DNA of 59,777 bases, filler included. It is 5 parts of 5 records of this genome, joined end to end, with 100 filler letters (N's around TTAATTAATTAA, not from the genome) between each part and the next. Parts side by side here need not be neighbours in the genome. Positions count along the whole stretch, not along the records: positions 1 to 6,309 come from SRR22947727_2767; 4 more parts are not named here. The stretch is one strand, 5' to 3'. Every line of letters begins with the position of its first letter. The stretch's first letter is position 1. The notes below the pieces were generated by a model, which was not told where the DNA came from, searched no databases, and saw only the letters and a program-made list of their open reading frames with translations. The position numbers and the translations under genes were made by a program. Of this stretch, positions 1,045 through 48,982 are shown piece after piece.

Positions 1045-1970
1045 AACATTTAGAAGATACTCCGTGGTGGATTTGTGATCCAGGTGATACAAACTATTGT
1101 GCCTATGTTGATACAGACTCTAATTATTTTAATGCAGAACCCTTACTAAGACATTTGTACCCTAATTTTGATGAAATGTCAGATTCAGAACGAGATAGTG
1201 TTTTAGAAAAAGAAGCACTTAAATATCAAGATATTATAACTGAAGATTATGATAGATTAGCTAAAGATTGTTTTAATGTTTCTACCCACAGATTAGAGAT
1301 GAAAACTGAATGTGTAATTAGGTCAGCTTATTTTAGAGCTACAAGACGTTATGCACAATGGATTACTAAACAAGAAGGTATTGAAAATGAAACATTAGAT
1401 GTAAAAGGATTAGAATTTAAAAAAGCTAATTTCCCCCCTGTATTTGGTAAGTTTTTTAAAAGTTGTTTAGAACAAGTACTTAAAGGAGTACCTAAACATG
1501 AAATTGATTCTCAATTATTAGAATTTAGAAGACAAATATTAAGTGGTGAAATACCTATTGAGAAAATTGGTAACCCACAAGCAGTAAAAAAACTAAATAA
1601 ATTTACTGAACGTAAAGCTAGAGCTGGAGAAATGTTTTCTTCAATAGGTAAAGGAGCACCTGCAGCTGTTAAAGCAGCTATTATTTATAATGATTTATTA
1701 AGATTTTGGAAATTAGATAAAAAATATAATTATATTACACAGGGAGAGAAAATTAAATGGATTTATTTAAAAAATAATCCTTATAGAATTGAAGCAATTG
1801 CTTTCCTAGACTATGATATACCAAAAGAAATTCGTACATTTATCGAGAAGTATGCTGATAGGCAAAAAGTATTCGATAGTATATTATTAAACAAGTTAGA
1901 AGGATTTTACAATGATCTAGGTTGGTCATTAAGTTTAAATCCTCATAGAAATAAATTTTTTAATTTTTAA
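1041..1970 (+). CDS. Family B DNA polymerase, C-terminal subunit (motif C palm and thumb)
   Basis: It contains YVDTDS (motif C), RRYA and VKGLEF. Its ATG overlaps the upstream stop (ATGA). Confidence 0.92.
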   Translation: MKHLEDTPWWICDPGDTNYCAYVDTDSNYFNAEPLLRHLYPNFDEMSDSERDSVLEKEALKYQDIITEDYDRLAKDCFNVSTHRLEMKTECVIRSAYFRATRRYAQWITKQEGIENETLDVKGLEFKKANFPPVFGKFFKSCLEQVLKGVPKHEIDSQLLEFRRQILSGEIPIEKIGNPQAVKKLNKFTERKARAGEMFSSIGKGAPAAVKAAIIYNDLLRFWKLDKKYNYITQGEKIKWIYLKNNPYRIEAIAFLDYDIPKEIRTFIEKYADRQKVFDSILLNKLEGFYNDLGWSLSLNPHRNKFFNF

Positions 1971-1972
1971 TT

Positions 1973-2719
1973 ATGATAAATAAATCAAAGTTACAATCAA
2001 TAATATCTAAATATTATTTAAATGGGTTAGTACAATCCGTAAGATGGCTGACTAAAGAAAATAAATTAAGCATTAGTTTTACATCTGAAAATAAAGATAT
2101 AGCTGGAGATCTAGTATGTGATACTTCACCTGTAGAAGATAGTGAAATAGCAATATTTGATACAGCACAATTAAATAAATTAATATCAGTTACTAATGGT
2201 GAATTATTACTTACTCTAGAAAAAGAACATAAAGTATTTTCTAAATTACATATTCAAGATAATTCATTTAATGTAGCTTATTCCTTAGCAGATTCATTAT
2301 TAGTCCCAAAAAGGGGAACAATAAATTTTCCTACTGATTATGATGTTATAATAGAATTAACACCTGAAATTGTAAGTAATTTTATTAAAGCTAAAAGTGC
2401 ATTAACTGATATAAGTGATGTAATGATTAGTACTGAAGAAGATCCTGATAGAGGAACTATAGTACAATTTGCATTTGGGGATTTAAATAATTTTTCAAAT
2501 AAAATTAAATATATTGTAGATGAAAATATAACAATAAATAAAGAATTAAAATTACCTTTTAATTCAGATTCATTTAAAAATATATTAGCAGCAAATAAAG
2601 ATTTAGAAAGTGGTAAACTTTCATTAACTGAAGAAGGATTTATGAAATTAGAATTTCAATCAGAAGATATAAAGACTTTATACTATATGGTAAGAAAAGA
2701 AGATGCCACATATGTATAA
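1973..2719 (+). CDS. DNA polymerase sliding clamp (T4 gp45/PCNA-like)
   Basis: A 248-aa acidic beta-rich protein directly after polB, with a clamp-like C-terminus (GFMKLEFQSEDIKTLYYMV). A clamp loader lies in the same module. Confidence 0.75.
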   Translation: MINKSKLQSIISKYYLNGLVQSVRWLTKENKLSISFTSENKDIAGDLVCDTSPVEDSEIAIFDTAQLNKLISVTNGELLLTLEKEHKVFSKLHIQDNSFNVAYSLADSLLVPKRGTINFPTDYDVIIELTPEIVSNFIKAKSALTDISDVMISTEEDPDRGTIVQFAFGDLNNFSNKIKYIVDENITINKELKLPFNSDSFKNILAANKDLESGKLSLTEEGFMKLEFQSEDIKTLYYMVRKEDATYV

Positions 2720-2744
2720 TAAATTGACCTAAGGGCGCAAGTTT
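2719..2744 (+). promoter_or_regulatory. 5' arm of a long-range RNA stem enclosing hsp20
   Basis: ATAAATTGACCTAAGGGCGCAAGTTT can pair with 3221-3245 (24 pairs including 3 G-U, two small bulges). Confidence 0.65.
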
Positions 2745-2795
2745 TAAATTATTTATTAACCGCTGATCTAAATGACAGCATAAAAACAAAGTGAT

Positions 2796-3218
2796 ATGAG
2801 TACACATTTTTTAGAGAGATCACACCATCCGTTTGATCTATTATTTCGAAATTTATTCGATACAAACACCCAATTCGTTCCGGCTACAGAAGCCAAACAA
2901 CAATACCCAATTAATATTTTTGAAGATGATTTAGGTTTAACCTTTGAGTTAGCTTGTACAGGCATTCCAAAAGATGCTATTGAAATCAAGTTAGAAGGTG
3001 ACTTAATTACCTTTAATTATGATAAGGAGAAAACACCAGATTCTCCTTCCCGAAATTATATCCATAGAGGAATTGCAAAACGTTCTTTTAATCTAGGATA
3101 TAAAGTAGGAACTAAGTTCGATCTTAAAAAAGCTACAGCTAATTTTAATGATGGTTTACTAATTGTGACTATTCCATTTGCCAAAGAAGCTATGCCAAAA
3201 GTTTTGAAAATTAACTAA
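2796..3218 (+). CDS. Small heat shock protein (Hsp20/alpha-crystallin family)
   Basis: It contains YPINI, YIHRGIAKRSF and ANFNDGLLIVTIP, plus a C-terminal I/L-x-I motif (KVLKIN). Confidence 0.95.
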   Translation: MSTHFLERSHHPFDLLFRNLFDTNTQFVPATEAKQQYPINIFEDDLGLTFELACTGIPKDAIEIKLEGDLITFNYDKEKTPDSPSRNYIHRGIAKRSFNLGYKVGTKFDLKKATANFNDGLLIVTIPFAKEAMPKVLKIN

Positions 3219-3220
3219 CC

Positions 3221-3245
3221 AAACGCGCCCTTTAGGTTGGTTTAT
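3221..3245 (+). promoter_or_regulatory. 3' arm of the long-range stem enclosing hsp20
   Basis: AAACGCGCCCTTTAGGTTGGTTTAT starts 2 nt after the hsp20 stop and is complementary to 2719-2744. Confidence 0.65.
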
Positions 3246-3265
3246 CAAAATTTCCTTCGTATATT
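3237..3265 (+). promoter_or_regulatory. Putative promoter TTGGTT-N17-TATATT
   Basis: It has the same architecture and spacing as the motif at 5840-5868, and lies upstream of the hyp-groES-groEL genes. Confidence 0.55.
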
Positions 3266-3289
3266 ATACCATAATTAAAAAAAAGTTAT

Positions 3290-3586
3290 ATGACTATTAT
3301 TAGAGATGAGTTGCTAGAGCCTTATTTTATAGGCAAAGATGCGTATTGTTATACAGCATATGAAGTTATTACCCCACAGAAAAAATATTTAGCTAAAGGT
3401 AGTAAAGGTAAAAATTATGAAAAACCAATTGGCCATTATGCTGATTTTGGAAATGCCTTATTAGCTATTATGAAACATCAATTAAATGAAAAAAATAAAG
3501 AATATTCATCTATTCAGGAATATCTGGATAAATGGAATAACATTAAATCAAATTTAAATAACATTAAAGAAAAAATTGGAATATGA
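3290..3586 (+). CDS. Phage hypothetical protein (loosely DUF5405-like)
   Basis: A 98-aa ORF that overlaps groES (ATGA). The K-rich 'KGSKGKNYEKPIGHY' segment recalls DUF5405 phage proteins; this is unverified. Confidence 0.6.
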   Translation: MTIIRDELLEPYFIGKDAYCYTAYEVITPQKKYLAKGSKGKNYEKPIGHYADFGNALLAIMKHQLNEKNKEYSSIQEYLDKWNNIKSNLNNIKEKIGI

Positions 3587-3921
3587 ATTTAGAAGCATTA
3601 TTTAACGCTGTTATAGTTAAACCAATTGAGGCAGAAGAAACTAAGTATGGCTCAATTGTAGTTCCTGATATGGGAAAAGACGTAAATGAACATGGAGAAA
3701 TAATAGCAGTAGGACCTGGTCAACATACAATTTCAGGTACATTTATTGAAACCATGAGTAAAGTTGGAGATATAGTAATATTACCAACTCAAGGATTTAC
3801 AAAATTACAACATGATGGAGAAGATTATTATGTTGGTCCTGAAAATCAAATCTTAGCAAGAGTAAAAAAAGAAGTAGATTTTGAAAAAATATTAGAAGAA
3901 ACTGAACCATTAAACGAATAA
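3583..3921 (+). CDS. groES: Co-chaperonin GroES (phage-encoded)
   Basis: It has LEALFNAVIVKP, the mobile loop GSIVVPD, GEIIAVGPG and KVGDIV, and lies directly upstream of groEL. Confidence 0.93.
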   Translation: MNLEALFNAVIVKPIEAEETKYGSIVVPDMGKDVNEHGEIIAVGPGQHTISGTFIETMSKVGDIVILPTQGFTKLQHDGEDYYVGPENQILARVKKEVDFEKILEETEPLNE

Positions 3922-3923
3922 AA

Positions 3924-5564
3924 ATGAGTAAAATTATAGAATTTGGCCCTGAGGGTAGAGATAAATTAGTAAAAGGAATTGATACATTAGCTAATGCTGT
4001 GGTATCAACATTAGGTCCTAATGGAAGAAATGTAGTAATAGAAAGACCTAACCAATCACCTATATCGACTAAAGACGGAGTTACAGTAGCAAAACATATA
4101 GCTGTAAGTGATCCTGTTGAAAATTTAGGTGTAAATTTAGTTAGGGAAGCGTCAATTAAAACAGCAGATAAAGCTGGTGATGGTACAACTACATCAACTC
4201 TTTTAGCAAGAGAAATGATTAAAGATGGTTTACAACATTTAGCTAATGGAGCTAATGCTGTTGAAATTAAAAGAGGTATTGACACAGCAGTAAAAGAAGT
4301 AGTTAATAATTTAAGAGAAAATATATCAGAAGATATTTCAGATGAAAATCAATTAGAACAAATCGCAACTATTTCTGCTAATAATGATCCTGAAGTAGGT
4401 AAATTAATAGCTACTGCAATGGATAAAGTAGGTGTTGAAGGAGTAGTTCATATTGAAGAATCTAAAACGGGAGATACTTATTTAGAAACTGTTGAAGGTA
4501 TGCAATTTGATAGAGGATATTTATCACATTATTTTGTTACTAATAATAGTACAATGACTTGTACCTTAGAAGATCCTTATATTTTAGTACTTAATCAAAA
4601 ATTATCTCAAGTTAAAGATTTATTACCTATGTTAGAAGCAGTTTCTAATACTAATAAATCATTACTTATTATAGCTGAGGATGTTGACAGTGAAGCGTTA
4701 GCAACACTTATAGTAAATAAAGCTAGAGGTACCATTAAAGTAGCTGCAGTTAAAGCCCCTGATTTTGGTGATAGAAGAAAGTTAATCTTAGAAGATATAG
4801 CTTCAGTAACAGGGGGTCAAGTATTTGATAAGGATAAAGGAATGAAACTTGATAAATTTTCTTGGGAATGGTTTGGTGAAGCACGTACTGTAACTATTTC
4901 AAAAGAAAAAACAACTATTATTGATGGTAAAGGAAATGAAGAATCTGTTAAGCAAAGATTAGAAGAACTTACTACTCAAATTGATAAAGCTCAATCTAAT
5001 TTTGAAACTGAAAAATTACAAGAAAGATTAGCTAAAATGGCTGGAGGTGTTTCTATTATCCATGTTGGGGGTTATACTGAAACTGAAATGAATGAGAAAA
5101 AAGATAGAGTTGATGATGCTCTGCATGCTACTAAAGCTGCAATTGAAGAAGGTATTGTCCCTGGTGGTGGAGCTGCATTATTATATGCTAGAGAAGCAAT
5201 CCCAGCTTCCACCAAATGTAATAAATGTATAGGAGCTGACATAGTTTATAAATCGTGTGGTAAACCTTTTGAACAAATATTAGTTAATGCTGGTAAAGAT
5301 TCAGTTGAAGCCCAAATGATAGGCAAATATAATCTAGTAGATTCAGGTAATGATGTTTGGGCTGGGTATAATATTAAAACAGATCATATCACAGATATGA
5401 AAAAAGCAGGTATTATTGATCCAACGAAAGTAACTAGAACAGCATTAGAAAATGCAGCTGCTGTAGCAGGAACTGTACTACTTACAGAATGTATAGTTGT
5501 TGATGAACCCAAAGAAGATACTCCACAACCCCAAATGGATCCTTCAATGATGATGGGAATGTAA
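3924..5564 (+). CDS. groEL: Group I chaperonin GroEL (phage-encoded)
   Basis: It has TLGPNGRNV, TKDGVTVAK, AGDGTTT, EGMQFDRGY, GIVPGGG, IIDPTKV and a Met/Gly tail. Confidence 0.98.
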   Translation: MSKIIEFGPEGRDKLVKGIDTLANAVVSTLGPNGRNVVIERPNQSPISTKDGVTVAKHIAVSDPVENLGVNLVREASIKTADKAGDGTTTSTLLAREMIKDGLQHLANGANAVEIKRGIDTAVKEVVNNLRENISEDISDENQLEQIATISANNDPEVGKLIATAMDKVGVEGVVHIEESKTGDTYLETVEGMQFDRGYLSHYFVTNNSTMTCTLEDPYILVLNQKLSQVKDLLPMLEAVSNTNKSLLIIAEDVDSEALATLIVNKARGTIKVAAVKAPDFGDRRKLILEDIASVTGGQVFDKDKGMKLDKFSWEWFGEARTVTISKEKTTIIDGKGNEESVKQRLEELTTQIDKAQSNFETEKLQERLAKMAGGVSIIHVGGYTETEMNEKKDRVDDALHATKAAIEEGIVPGGGAALLYAREAIPASTKCNKCIGADIVYKSCGKPFEQILVNAGKDSVEAQMIGKYNLVDSGNDVWAGYNIKTDHITDMKKAGIIDPTKVTRTALENAAAVAGTVLLTECIVVDEPKEDTPQPQMDPSMMMGM

Positions 5565-6309: not shown

Positions 6310-6409
6310 NNNNNNNNNNNNNNNNNNNNNNNNNNNNNNNNNNNNNNNNNNNNTTAATTAATTAANNNNNNNNNNNNNNNNNNNNNNNNNNNNNNNNNNN
6401 NNNNNNNNN
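6310..6409. other. Artificial contig linker
   Basis: N-run + TTAATTAATTAA (stops in all six frames) + N-run. Confidence 0.99.
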
Positions 6410-8180
6410 CGTCATCAAATAATAGGGTCGTTAAGGTTGATGCACGCACGTCATCCCCCTGCGTTCCGATCACCGACCTCAAGGTCTCGAAATGATCCGC
6501 GAATCGACCGACCTTGCCGCAAATCATCCCATCCGCATCACCATTACGCAGTATCATCGCCGCAATAATAGTGCTGTCTGTTCTCAGAAGAACACTGCTG
6601 CCCTCTACCGATATGCCGCCGCGTCCTGCAATGCTGTGAAAGTCTCGTGAGTACTCGTCGTACTTGTCATAGCTACGTGGATTAATGACGTCGACGTCTT
6701 CACCTAACTTGATTCTCAGTCCCAGTTCGTCGATCACTCCGTTTATTGCATCGGGACGACCCACTAAAATGGGTCGCGCGATAGCCTCATCCACCACCGT
6801 TTGCACGGCACGCAGGACGATCTCATTTTCGGCGTCTGAATAGACCAGTTTTAGACCACTGTTGGCAGCTGCATTGACAACGGGCTGCATAAACATTCCC
6901 GATCGTGTGACGTGTTTACTGAGGCTTCTCCGATACCCGTCAAGATCTTCGATAGGACGACTCGCTACGCCGGTTTTCATAGCCGCCTCAACAACCGCTA
7001 CCGGCACCCTCTCGAATAGGCGTGGGTCGAAAGGCTTGGGGATAATGTAATCGGGGCCGAACTTGAGTGATTGACCGTCGTAAGCTTGTGCAACCTCCTC
7101 CGACGCTTCTTGCTGGGCAAGATCGACCAGACCATACGCACAAGCAATCTTCATCTCGTCATTAATGGTGGTGGCACCGCAGTCCAGTGCGCCGCGGAAG
7201 AGGAATGGAAAACACAGCACGTTATTGACCTGATTCGGAAAGTCCGATCGCCCCGTGCCAATAATAGCGTCCGGACGCGCCTCGCGCGTTAGGTCCGGAT
7301 GAATTTCAGGATTGGGGTTTGCCATTGCCAGAATCAGCGGATTGGGCGCCATTTCTTTCACCATATCTTGTGTCACACAGTCACCGGTCGACAGGCCGAA
7401 GAAAATATCAGCTCCCACCATGGCCTCTGCCAATGTGCGCTTATCGGTCTTTCTCGCGTAGCGCTCTTTGAACTCGTTCATCCCGTCTTGGCGGCCTTCA
7501 TAAATGAGGCCCTTGCTGTCACACATCAATACATTTTCACGCTTGAGTCCCAGACTCACGATCAAGTCCGCGCAAGACATACTCGCTGATCCCGCACCAG
7601 AAATGACGAGCTTAACCTCTTCCATTTTTTTCCCGGTTAGTTTGAGCCAGGAGATCACAGCCGCTGTCGACACCACTGCAGTGCCGTGCTGATCGTCATG
7701 AAAAACCGGTATATTCATGCGCTCACGGAGCTGACGCTCGACGTAGAAGCACTCAGGCGCTTTGATGTCCTCAAGAATGATGCCGCCAAAAGTGGGTTCG
7801 AGCGCGGCGATAATATTGACCAACTTCTCCGGGTCTCTCTCATCAATCTCTAAATCGAAAGTATCGATATCCGAAAACTTTTTCATCAGAACGGCCTTAC
7901 CTTCCATGACCGGTTTGGATGCGAGCGCGCCGATAGCACCGAGACCCAATACAGCAGTGCCATTGCTGATGACAGCGACGAGATTTCCGCGCGCAGTCAC
8001 TTGCGATGCGTTTAACGGGTCTTCCACGATGTACTCACAGGCATGGGCAACACCGGGTGAATACGCCATTGACAGATCTGCCTGCGTTTCGAGCGGCGTA
8101 GTGGCTCTTACCTCCAGCTTCCCTGGCTTTCCCTCGATGTGGTACTTGAGGGATTCCTCTTTAAAGGTGGGCTTATCCAT
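6410..8180 (-). CDS. maeB: NADP-dependent malic enzyme with PTA-like domain; 3'-truncated
   Basis: It has [26 protein letters not shown] and [11 protein letters not shown]. The likely start is MDKPTF at 8180, with GGAG upstream. Confidence 0.95.
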
Positions 8181-8633
8181 CCGAGACTCCGCATTGTCAG
8201 TGTGTGATCGCGCCTTTTGCACTGTGACCCAGAAGGCGTCTCCGCCGCTTTTTCTAGCCACGGATCAAAACGCGCTAAGTGAAACACGAATTAACGCGCC
8301 AAATAGTGAAAGTTCTCCAGTCTGTGCACTTTTATCGTTAATGCTACGTCGCGCAGACCGTATTGGTTGTCGCGCATCGGGGGCCAATACGCGTTTTGAC
8401 TGATTAGCACTTCGAGAATCCAATTTGTCCGCATGGGCCGATGGCACATCCTCTGTTAACACGAGGCTCGGCAGTACTCGACAGGCACCGCAGATCCGCT
8501 AGGGCGGCCACAAGTCCCTCACTCGAATCAATCCATCATCATGAGGACCGTCAGCAGATAGCCCTGACGCGATCACCGCTCTATGATGACCCTAGTCAGG
8601 CGGGTTCCACCCGCAAAAACTGGGAGTTCAGTG

Positions 8634-48100: not shown

Positions 48101-48982
48101 AGCTGTTGGATGATTGTGTGTTTCAACTTTAATAGTTGAATTCAGTTTGTCTTGCACAAAACTATAATGATTTTTGTCATTCAAATGTAGTCTTTCTACT
48201 TCCTCACCTTCTGTAATAGCAGCGTTATCTTTATAAGCTGAAATAATCCCATTTGGTGACTGTTTGCTTGTCTCTTTTATAAGATCAAAAAGGCTATTAT
48301 TTTTTGCAGCTCCGTCAATGGTCCATTTAGCATTGAATATCTTGTGCCTGCAGTGCTCAGAATTAGCTTGAGCGAACATCATAAGCTCAGCATCTGTAGG
48401 GTTTCTAGCTGCTTTTGAGTAAAAATCATACAAATATTCAATTTCATCGTTACTCATTGCAAATCCAAAGCTTTTATTGGCTTCTTGAAGGGTTTTTATG
48501 CCTCCAGCAATAATATCAATAACACTGACTGCCCTTTGTGAGTCTATGTTTAAAAAATCTTTGCATTCTTCGTAATCAAAATAAATAGATTGTGTCATAC
48601 GATCAATAAACATTGATAAATCTAAATCAGCATCTTGTGAAAAATGAGAAATATGAAATCCATAGAATTTTTCAATTCTGCTGACATCTTTTACACCAAC
48701 ATTTTTAATAATGTCTTCGGTTTTTGATGACCAGGGAGAAATAGTTCCAGATCTAGGACCAACTAAAAAAGAAAATGTTTCCAATAAATCGTTGGCATTT
48801 AAAATATTTTTTAGATCACTAAGATTTAGTTCATGATTTTCTGAAGCTAAAATATATATTTCATTTGAAGTAATTTCAGCGTTTTGATTATTTGATTTGT
48901 TGAAGTCGAGGTTGAGTTGCTCTAACTTGGAGTCTGAAAAACTTTTTTTGCCTTGCAATATAAAGGTATTAGTCTTTGACAC
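45137..48982 (-). CDS. purL: Phosphoribosylformylglycinamidine synthase (large type)
   Basis: It has NSEHCRHKIFNA, KVETHNHPT, HDVGAGG, GVCNGCQ and MPHPER. Confidence 0.97.
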   Translation of the reverse strand: MSKTNTFILQGKKSFSDSKLEQLNLDFNKSNNQNAEITSNEIYILASENHELNLSDLKNILNANDLLETFSFLVGPRSGTISPWSSKTEDIIKNVGVKDVSRIEKFYGFHISHFSQDADLDLSMFIDRMTQSIYFDYEECKDFLNIDSQRAVSVIDIIAGGIKTLQEANKSFGFAMSNDEIEYLYDFYSKAARNPTDAELMMFAQANSEHCRHKIFNAKWTIDGAAKNNSLFDLIKETSKQSPNGIISAYKDNAAITEGEEVERLHLNDKNHYSFVQDKLNSTIKVETHNHPTAISPYPGAATGSGGEIRDEGATGRGAKPKIGLVGFNVSNLRIPNLKRSWEGDEHKPERIASPLDIMIEAPIGAAAFNNEFGRPSTLGYFRSYETQFNDNNTAFGYHKPIMLAGGIGEIRDRNNFKLQITEGYHVVVLGGPAMLIGLGGGAASSVSSGDSDEDLDFASVQRDNAEMERRCQEVINVCSSQDNSFIEFIHDVGAGGLSNAIPELAKDSDLGVYIELDKIPNSDQSMSPMEIWSNESQERYVMAVHPKNKEAFENICKRERCVYAFVGITTAEKSVKLFDSKTDSYPVNVPLSMLFGDLPITGMTVSKYESVNKDEDNSSKFEFNESLKKILGHPTVSSKSFLITIGDRTVGGMVARDQFIGPYQVPVSDYSMSLRSFTANTGEVLTIGEKPTLAVNNPAASMRMSIAEALTNMSGVLIKGLDQVQVSANWMAATGEEVEDLALRDGVEALSKSCVDLDISVPVGKDSLSMRTKWEDGSVERVVKSPLSGVITAMAPVTDVRNSVTPELNIDTPSKLIHVKLNDKNRMSGSIFSEVTQSNFINTPDIDDMNLLKEMFNSIQELVARKRILALHDVSDGGLITSLLEMAFTKKIGLDIFDSKLNEENLNEYFFAEETGLVLQVAESDIENIQEKLLSTGLSVNVIGSISDSKNITIRSESENFFSESVLTLERYWREASHAIQSIRDNKTIADSELNLLDDVEHSGLFSNESFDESILESFNILDSKPKVAILREQGVNGQMEMAAAFTLAGFEAVDVHMQDLLDNNVSLKEFNGLAACGGFSYGDVLGAGGGWSKTILHNNLVKDQFEAFFNSTSTFTLGVCNGCQMVSKLKDIIPGAESWPSFEKNLSDQFEARLAQVKIQKSDSILLRGMEGWSMPIASAHGEGHAKFSQDNLDHLISNNQIALIFVDSNENNTETYPLNPNGSAEGVTGITAADGRVTIMMPHPERVFRKLQMSWRPEHWKEFSPWMQIFINARKSLN

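Follow-up and report, generated by a model that had tools for sequence, protein, structure and literature searches.

The window analyzed here, i.e., the whole stretch of 59.8 kb, consists of several unrelated contigs separated by runs of N, beginning with a piece of phage DNA. On this phage piece, a gene encoding a small heat-shock protein (hsp20) is located between a gene in the position of a sliding clamp and an open reading frame (ORF) designated orf98. The only sizeable spacers within the tightly packed gene block are the two flanking hsp20, each carrying one of two complementary arms. On the basis of sequence comparison, a long-range RNA helix joining the hsp20 leader to its trailer, and looping the gene out, is strongly supported. 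The genes and arms are as follows:

1973 to 2719, plus strand: upstream gene in the sliding-clamp position (that of T4 gp45), 248 amino acids (aa), between the split family-B DNA polymerase (PolB) and the clamp loader
2719 to 2744, plus strand: 5' arm of the proposed long-range helix, ATAAATTGACCTAAGGGCGCAAGTTT, best-kept part at 2726-2738 (GACCTAAGGGCGC)
2796 to 3218, plus strand: hsp20, small heat-shock protein of 140 aa (Pfam PF00011, E=1.3e-9; PHROG 432, E=2.6e-16)
3221 to 3245, plus strand: 3' arm of the proposed long-range helix, AAACGCGCCCTTTAGGTTGGTTTAT
3290 to 3586, plus strand: orf98 (98 aa), downstream gene
3583 to 3921, plus strand: groES, after orf98
3924 to 5564, plus strand: groEL, after groES

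A preliminary description of this locus had stated that 2719-2744 can pair with 3221-3245 to give 24 pairs with two small bulges, which is borne out by the letters as well as by RNAfold. The helix is divided into 14, 6, and 4 pairs: 2719-2732 pair with 3231-3245, with a single U bulging out of the right strand; the G+C core is formed by 2733-2738 with 3225-3230, and an AA bulge (2739-2740) precedes the inner part, in which 2741-2744 pair with 3221-3224. The loop enclosed between the arms measures 476 nucleotides (nt). Folding of 2700-3270 placed the helix in both the minimum free energy (MFE) structure and the centroid, with a z-score of -4.30 for the whole stretch and none of 100 shuffles being as stable. 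The best spacer-to-spacer duplex reached -27.4 kcal/mol compared with -14.7 +/- 3.5 kcal/mol for shuffles, four of 2,000 being as low. Within a 95.6-kb relative (G002), hsp20 ranked second among 122 genes in terms of complementarity between upstream and downstream flanks, with 10 of 3,000 non-cognate pairs as low; the first rank was taken by a gene located between two copies of a promoter repeat. A scan of 2600-3400 on both strands against Rfam gave no match at E <= 1. In the same relative, a second long-range complementarity (L206:12175-12199 with L206:15159-15178, GGGUAUGAUUGGCAUACAAUAU with AUAUUGUAUGUCUUAUACCC, -32.5 kcal/mol) brackets a three-gene block including the tape-measure gene; the hits of a pattern search for it equalled those of the control.

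The arms had also been described as bracketing hsp20 flush with both stop codons. This holds in the window (clamp-like ORF, 2717-2719; hsp20, 3216-3218) but not in other subgroups of relatives, where approximately 20-90 nt or a complete additional ORF separate the clamp stop from the 5' arm downstream of it, and 10-25 nt separate the hsp20 stop from the 3' arm. Likewise, the three G-U wobbles (2724:3240, 2725:3239, and 2726:3238) are real, but they are weaker evidence for selection on RNA than had been argued: the segment doubles as the -35 element of the next class A promoter (see below), so that the letters at the wobble positions are frozen.

Relatives were collected by three protein-guided scans, of which that with hsp20 in viral contigs gave 54 loci. 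The hsp20 alignment over metagenome contigs kept 80 of 127 and the orf98 alignment over viral contigs 80 of 123, and 102 leader/trailer pairs were left once identical ones had been removed. Over these distinct pairs, the duplex showed a median of -28.6 kcal/mol, with 101 of 102 at -21.8 kcal/mol or better. Within a 38-row alignment, 90.4% of 912 cells were paired compared with 27.6-58.1% when the partners were slid by 1-3 columns, and not one of 500 column shuffles reached the observed percentage paired or the covariation score. The central pair next to the bulge is of the Watson-Crick type in 97 of 106 distinct rows (A-U in 72, U-A in 21, C-G in 4), occurring in the contexts left TAA/right T(T)TA, left TTA/right TA(T/C)A or TAA, and left TCA/right TGA. 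On the hsp20 tree, the distribution of U-A versus the rest requires at least four changes and that of C-G one. The bulged base itself is variable (U, C, or absent), and U.G changed to C-G in 13+1 of the 38 rows. Inside this close 38-row set, the covariation evidence rests on few positions.

The decisive conservation evidence lies in the distant lineages. The same arm letters were found in 15 of 20 distant loci read, whose Hsp20 is 45-50% identical to that of the window. Four loci (L344, L354, L356, and L365) carry entirely different arms, UUAGGACACGCU and AGCGUGUCCUAA, extended by outer GGAG/CGCC and AUAU/AUAU; in this arm family, one outer pair is G-C (L344), U-A (L354 and L356), or G.A (L365). 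Yet other arms, GUGAAACCUUAGGGAAC and GUUCUCCUAAGGUUUCAC, are present in L352 and form 13+4 pairs with one bulged U on the 3' strand, while the helix of group E (including L344, L354, and L356) has about 19 pairs. Full-length folds of L354 (z -4.49) and L352 (z -3.01) contain the closing helix in MFE structure and centroid. Cognate duplexes of the three arm families showed means of -28.0, -34.0, and -31.1 kcal/mol compared with cross-family means of -12.8 to -19.8 kcal/mol, a test that relies on duplex energies together with visual reading of the pairs. Replacement of the arm letters across three families, with the pairing kept, thus reads as covariation of the whole helix. The preliminary description had named covariation among relatives as one check of the proposed stem; the complementarity turned out to be conserved (101/102) and compensatory, including whole-helix replacement in two distant lineages. 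A scan with a 15-mer of the 3' arm was not used, since it returned at least 119 stretches, many in unrelated contigs, which represent chance matches to a short pattern.

Considering these data, it is very improbable that two independently conserved regulatory spacers are complementary by chance, their pairing being devoid of function. Such a coincidence would agree with the composition of the outer eight pairs, which on the left side correspond to an A/T-rich promoter consensus (TATAATAAAT) and on the right side to the -35 region (TTGGTTTAT), and with the moderate significance of the single sequence (4/2000 shuffles). However, the G+C core belongs to neither promoter motif, and pairing is retained within each of the three arm families in spite of their differing letters but lost when arms of different families are combined. 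Furthermore, A-U, U-A, and C-G are all found at the central pair, and a G-C to U-A change took place within group E. In sum, a selected RNA helix very probably exists.

The spacers of the 95.6-kb relative (L206-L210; e.g., L208:17461, corresponding to G002 57461) revealed two recurring promoter-like motifs. Class A (TTTGGw, approximately 17 nt, TTCGTATATT(TACCC)) is found ahead of small ORFs, replication genes, and chaperonin genes, and the pattern [CT]GTATATT gave 22 plus-strand hits, 14 of them intergenic, compared with seven on the minus strand. Class B (AT(G/T)TATAAT(AAA), i.e., AT(G/T)TATAATAAA) gave 18 plus-strand hits, 8 of them intergenic, compared with 10 on the minus strand, and is situated 21-47 nt ahead of the tail sheath, tail tube, tape measure, and neighboring genes. 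The T4 late consensus TATAAATA was not enriched in this relative (14 plus, 21 minus). T4 late promoters consist of a -10 element only and, by analogy, class B probably represents a late-type promoter. The signals assigned around hsp20 in the window are as follows:

2712 to 2720, plus strand: putative class B (late-type) promoter motif ATGTATAAT with TATAAT at 2715-2720, assigned by recurrence of the motif before tail genes
2762 to 2779, plus strand: leader hairpin GCUG-A-UC / loop / GA-CAGC, 6 base pairs (bp), bulged A, loop of 4-5 nt, 16 nt ahead of the start codon
2791 to 2795, plus strand: GUGAU, likely Shine-Dalgarno variant, abutting the AUG (2796) and outside both arms
3237 to 3265, plus strand: putative class A promoter of the next operon (orf98-groES-groEL), -35 element TTGGTT at 3237-3242, 17-nt spacer, TATATT at 3260-3265 within TTCGTATATT

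In the window, the class B motif shares letters with both the clamp stop codon and the beginning of the 5' arm. All subgroups have retained ATATGTAT ahead of this arm, including those in which it does not code for protein. The predicted transcript start lies at approximately 2727 (range 2725-2729), about 7 nt after the TATAAT box and at the foot of the well-kept part of the helix. By eye, the 5' arm starts 0-8 nt past the point 7 nt downstream of a TATAAT-like box in four arm families. On the other side of the gene, GGTTGGTT of the 3' arm constitutes the -35 element of the class A promoter, the TATATT of which is part of a conserved stretch (3256-3265). The overlap of the 3' arm with the -35 element of the next promoter had already been pointed out, and it is in line with the recurrence of the class A motif ahead of many genes in the relative. 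A sigma-70 site at 2724-2752 (TTGACC-17-AATTAT) was discarded, as the regional count of such sites was below the shuffle mean (11 vs 13.1) and its -10 part lacks conservation among relatives.

Between the 5' arm and the gene, the leader hairpin was part of the MFE structure of all 53 distinct leaders, and RNAalifold on 22 of them returned six pairs, four with compensatory changes (pair types C-G/A-U/G-C/U-A, U-A/A-U/G-C, G-C/A-U, and U-A/C-G). This hairpin does not cover GUGAU-AUG. The GUGAU, which is presumably complementary to the 3' tail of the 16S rRNA, is invariant or AUGAU in relatives. Together with the AUG, it is located at least 47 nt downstream of the 5' arm and does not pair with the 3' arm; masking of the start signals of the hok or the icaR type was not found. 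Nor is the ribosome site part of any conserved helix, as masking by an RNA thermometer (ROSE/fourU), a type of element common ahead of sHsp genes, would demand. Since the long-range helix leaves ribosome site and start codon free, it is not a translational mask of the kind found in hok, icaR, or T4 e/soc.

The 3' arm can in addition form a local hairpin (3217-3222 with 3237-3242), as had been reported. The hairpin exists, but in the window it is no better than chance (z -0.24; 70 of 200 shuffles as good). A local hairpin represents the MFE structure of nearly all 71 distinct trailers, ranging from -4.1 to -10.9 kcal/mol, and its loop exposes CGCCC in several subgroups. Across six representatives, local hairpins gave z-scores of -0.24 to -2.12, with 7 to 70 of 200 shuffles being as good. 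The prevalence of such hairpins could speak for a conformational switch, in which the 3' arm alternates between the long-range helix and the local hairpin with its upstream mimic (AACC..GGUU), gating read-through, translation of the next gene, or timing, and possibly responding to hsp20 translation or temperature. An outward extension in L352, pairing the promoter region with the GGUUAUG of the next gene, would suit such a switch, as would a ribosome stopped at 3216-3218, which in the window's subgroup would cover the inner 3' arm. We nevertheless regard it as unlikely: the local hairpins are no better than shuffles, group E has a different MFE hairpin, and the Shine-Dalgarno sequence and AUG of hsp20 lie outside the arms. 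Furthermore, in an equilibrium thermodynamic model, the long-range core pairs kept a probability of at least 0.97 from 10 to 50 C, i.e., no melting in the physiological range, and the temperature-sensitive switch considered in the preliminary description accordingly gains no support. With respect to L352 itself (L352:1205-1745), the extension of the closing helix (UAUAACC : GGUUAUG) allows the promoter box region to pair with the start signals (ribosome site and AUG) of the following gene; it is possible on read-through RNA only and, being a single case, may be due to chance.

The position of the 3' arm raises a further alternative, namely a long-range intrinsic terminator or insulator, in which the emerging 3' arm pairs with the 5' arm and stops read-through from the replication operon before the next promoter. 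The promoter indeed directly follows the 3' arm, and other spacers of the 95.6-kb relative contain a local G+C hairpin followed by a promoter, one of them with a similar core (AAAGGGCGC-tattaa-GCGCCTTTT). Against this, no terminator-like site was predicted in 1900-4000, no U-run follows 3245 in the window, and a loop of approximately 480 nt would be kinetically unfavorable. In L352, the ribosome site and AUG of the next gene begin at most 7 nt past the 3' arm; because no promoter is interposed, transcription must continue past the arm. Termination is therefore a distinctly unlikely role of the helix.

Extension of the comparison toward gene content showed that the cassette is clearly mobile on an evolutionary time scale. 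Among 80 orf98 loci, hsp20 is present in 68, the clamp gene adjoins orf98 without hsp20 in seven, and five are cut off. The loci lacking hsp20 between clamp and orf98 are L355, L366, L359/L362/L367, and L369/L370 (around 1700-2000 of each). A different small ORF occupies the hsp20 site in L359, L362, and L367, and the same ORF follows hsp20 in L352. An unrelated 36-nt spacer without arms is found in L355; comparison of this empty site with the filled site of L354 shows replacement of the spacer without target duplication. In L369/L370, a late-type motif and a single ACCTTAGGGTTGG are retained ahead of the class A promoter. In L316 (780-1500), an extra ORF of approximately 0.7 kb separates the clamp gene from the unit of late-type motif, 5' arm, and hsp20; accordingly, the arm travels with hsp20 and not with the clamp gene. 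The arm motif CCTWAGGGCG (at most one mismatch) marks the hsp20 5' arm in each of five relatives of 53-96 kb, with two one-mismatch hits elsewhere, as compared with two hits for a control pattern. As the motif is unique in these relatives, a dispersed repeat of the PeSL kind was rejected, and so was an invertible segment, given the single orientation in all loci holding both neighbors.

Mobility of the cassette leads to the question of whether the arms act at the level of DNA, as terminal inverted repeats of a mobile hsp20 cassette or as scars left by recombination, their likeness being maintained by one protein or recombination process acting on both ends. Several observations agree with this alternative: hsp20 is present or absent between the same neighbors (68 vs 7 of the 80 orf98 loci), the arm letters differ by lineage as in transposon families, the loci L369/L370 keep a single ACCTTAGGGTTGG at the site in spite of lacking hsp20, and the arm letters are more strongly conserved than pairing requires. 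On the other hand, L354 and L355 differ by replacement of the 36-nt spacer and not by a clean insertion, with the late-type promoter being located outside of the 5' arm. Orientation is the same throughout the loci, and no strand-changing joint was reported at the arms. No transposase or second copy of the motif turned up in the five long relatives and no target-site duplication was found between filled and empty sites, a dedicated recombinase search not being part of these comparisons. The arms moreover contain bulges as well as G.T mismatches, and in 90 of 101 rows, pairing is better on the plus strand than on the minus strand. By family, the plus-strand duplex was more stable than its minus-strand counterpart in 85/96, 4/4, and 1/1 rows, with a modest gap in the main family (mean -28.2 vs -25.0 kcal/mol). 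Function at the RNA level is favored because of this better pairing of the plus strand, the U.G to C-G changes, the bulges, the unique arms, the single orientation, and the spacer replacement. Because the cassette is mobile and its arm letters are conserved beyond the needs of pairing, the DNA-level alternative retains some weight, unlikely as it is.

With masking, terminator, thermosensor, and local-hairpin switch failing, control of RNA fate remains. We propose, with a probability of about 50%, that the helix closes the hsp20 message and sets its fate by end protection and/or RNase III-type processing. The hsp20 cassette would be composed of the late-type promoter, the 5' arm, a U-rich spacer, the small hairpin, an A-rich leader with GUGAU-AUG, the ORF, and the 3' arm. 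Formed on plus-strand RNA, the helix would hold the cistron in a closed loop (“panhandle”). A paired 5' end shields bacterial RNA from 5'-end-dependent decay, and since the 5' arm directly follows the late-type promoter motif, RNA from this promoter would have its 5' end hidden from such decay at the helix foot and its 3' flank kept within that duplex. In a model RNA starting at 2727, the core pairs had probabilities of at least 0.97. In read-through transcripts of the replication genes, the full duplex of 20-24 bp would form, which could act as an RNase III-type processing site at which the hsp20 unit is excised or detached from the polycistronic RNA. In the window, the 24 pairs with bulges of 1 and 2 nt have the size of an RNase III stem (approximately 20 bp of near-continuous double-stranded RNA), while RNA from the predicted own-promoter start keeps about 16-17 pairs. 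Modeled helices of 17-24 bp thus make RNase III processing plausible, and different fates of read-through and own-promoter RNAs are suggested.

A more elaborate version of message closure is offered tentatively and is rather unlikely. In this timing device, the full duplex of early read-through RNA would be cut, silencing or detaching hsp20, whereas the panhandle of RNA from the late-type promoter, being shorter and blunt, would escape cutting and protect the two ends. Depending on the origin of the transcript, one pair of arms would confer opposite fates, a 5'-side mirror of lambda sib retroregulation traveling with the gene.

The mRNA-closing device of the preliminary description is thereby upheld as far as a selected leader-trailer helix at the RNA level is concerned; for its temperature switch and for circularization, no support was obtained. 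Four marine metatranscriptome runs of one study (X1-X4) were available as contigs, which carry no information on ends, strand, or level and may include carried-over DNA. They contain 57-62% of the sampled words of the phage piece, and among the matches listed in these contig sets, no joint at the arms was seen that would indicate a circular RNA. Contig pieces bridge the 5' arm (2636-2930 in X3; 2657-2930 in X4) and the 3' arm (3194-3910 in X2; 3215-3432/3445 in X1, X3, and X4). Such pieces neither support nor refute transcription across both arms. An archaeal bulge-helix-bulge motif, the substrate of tRNA-splicing endonuclease in the formation of circular RNA, was rejected by eye: the bulges have 1 and 2 nt instead of 3, they are 6 bp apart instead of 4 and lie 3' of the central helix on each strand, and both the promoters and the ribosome sites of this T4-like virus are of the bacterial type.

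Several points weigh against closure of the message by a selected helix. The counts given above refer to distinct sequences and not to independent events, most of them being close relatives and some contigs occurring in both collections. In the 38-row alignment, pairs changed on both sides number two, a value reached by 143 of 500 shuffles, and further pair types number seven, reached by 418 of 500. Nine of 106 rows show a mismatch at the central pair, and 12 of 106 have a C.A next to it. The inner 4-bp helix is poorly conserved beyond the window's subgroup, the outer eight pairs, which coincide with promoter consensus letters on both sides, are perhaps partly fortuitous, and the outer pairing is partly lost in one subgroup (two columns, 22-27 of 38 rows). 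Conservation of the arm letters far beyond the needs of pairing hints at a sequence-specific partner. One locus of the 102 distinct ones (L277:1-1500) has the 3' arm without 5' arm or late-type motif; its upstream DNA is a cellular-type gene on the opposite strand, which reflects either a chimeric contig or a real rearrangement. No piece spanning both arms was present among the matches listed for the X1-X4 contigs. Finally, the promoter classes and the transcript start are predictions drawn from motifs and neighboring genes.

Regarding its origin, the phage piece (1 to approximately 6330) has a G+C content of 28%, which shifts to 53-60% at about 6.3 kb and to 33-40% at 43 kb of the window. A run of N is situated at about 6330-6370, and a malic-enzyme-like ORF (6354-8261, minus strand) lies in the bacterial DNA of 53-60% G+C. 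The gene order on the phage piece is split PolB, clamp-position ORF, hsp20, orf98, groES, groEL, an ORF of 90 aa, and a gp44-type clamp loader (PHROG 168, E=3.5e-55). PolB is encoded by two overlapping ORFs (PHROG 262, E=6e-82 and 5.2e-48), which share an ATGA (1041-1044), and the same split is present in all relatives. Some relatives have extra ORFs between polymerase and clamp, namely of 127 aa (L021:1784-2167) and 533 aa (L042:582-2183). No match of its own was found for the clamp-position ORF in Pfam or PHROG. A nucleotide similarity search against isolated phages gave no match, PolB is 28-35% identical to that of the closest isolates (at most 35% for Microcystis phage Mel-JY01 and about 30% for cyanomyoviruses), and the 95.6-kb relative contains T4-type tail sheath, tube, and tape-measure genes; for these reasons, the source is best described as an uncultured marine, distantly T4-like myovirus with a bacterial host. 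Judging from an excerpt of the relevant report, the group corresponds to the chaperonin-carrying virioplankton (PMC5649160). Nearly all of the 125 ORFs of the 95.6-kb relative are on one strand, and 31 of its spacers exceed 40 nt. One spacer (L208:8566-8656, i.e., G002 48566-48656) resembles a tRNA gene by eye.

Stems of double-stranded RNA, made from segments on either side of a functional RNA or situated at gene borders, are cut by RNase III to release, stabilize, or destabilize the RNA they enclose or adjoin, as in the RNase III stems flanking 16S/23S rRNA, the T7 intergenic sites, and lambda sib. The present helix has a comparable layout, and its cleavage would be a prediction. The comparisons that follow draw on excerpts of the cited reports. 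In the hok mRNA of plasmid R1 (hok/sok), tac/fbi pairing over a long distance between the 5' and 3' untranslated regions closes and stabilizes the full-length mRNA and is conserved in the family (PMC9841398). Common to both is a 5'-end/3'-end pairing closing the message, the position of the 5' arm at the RNA 5' end being predicted here from the promoter motif. The closed form of hok hides the mok ribosome site via a further box, is opened by 3' trimming, and is the target of an antisense RNA, whereas the ribosome site and AUG of hsp20 lie outside the arms and the product is a chaperone of a lytic-type phage and not a toxin. For Bacillus subtilis hbs, a small monocistronic mRNA, a leader-trailer duplex of 14 bp modulates ribonuclease access to the leader (PMC5737220). 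That system involves RNase Y and J1 in a Firmicute, and its duplex overlaps a mapped cleavage site; with 17-24 bp, the present helix exceeds it in length, and it starts at the predicted 5' end. Trailer-leader pairing in icaR of Staphylococcus aureus creates a double-stranded substrate of RNase III (PMC3868564). The icaR trailer, however, pairs with the ribosome site and blocks initiation, whereas the present pairing is located about 50 nt ahead of the AUG, with the ribosome site remaining free.

Among phage systems, upstream-promoter RNAs of T4 e, soc, 49, and I-TevI carry both helix halves, while RNAs from the late promoter at or in the 5' half do not (PMC3014915). The logic of one sequence giving RNAs with different fates is shared with these genes. 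They rely on local hairpins sequestering the ribosome site, in contrast to a partner located approximately 480 nt away past the stop codon, and the own-promoter RNA is predicted here to keep the helix core. PeSL elements are small terminator/promoter composites which bound variable genes of T4-like genomes and mediate module exchange (PMC4122927). As in that case, hsp20 is a variable module between promoter-bearing spacers, with the class A promoter cassette being a dispersed repeat; PeSLs are dispersed direct repeats with local stem-loops, whereas the present arms are unique and complementary across a gene. The helix is thus a member of none of the compared families, leader-trailer pairing itself being already known from hok, hbs, and icaR.

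For phage hsp20, no description of such an arrangement was found in the open-access literature (supplements and subscription journals being outside the scope). Experimentally supported leader-trailer pairings within one bacterial or phage mRNA are few, those found being hok, icaR, and hbs. The case presented here would add a deeply conserved helix around a complete cistron in abundant, uncultured marine phages carrying chaperone genes. With a length of approximately 530 nt, it may serve as a compact test object for the effect of end-to-end pairing on mRNA decay and processing, and for an RNA structure packaged with a mobile gene module.

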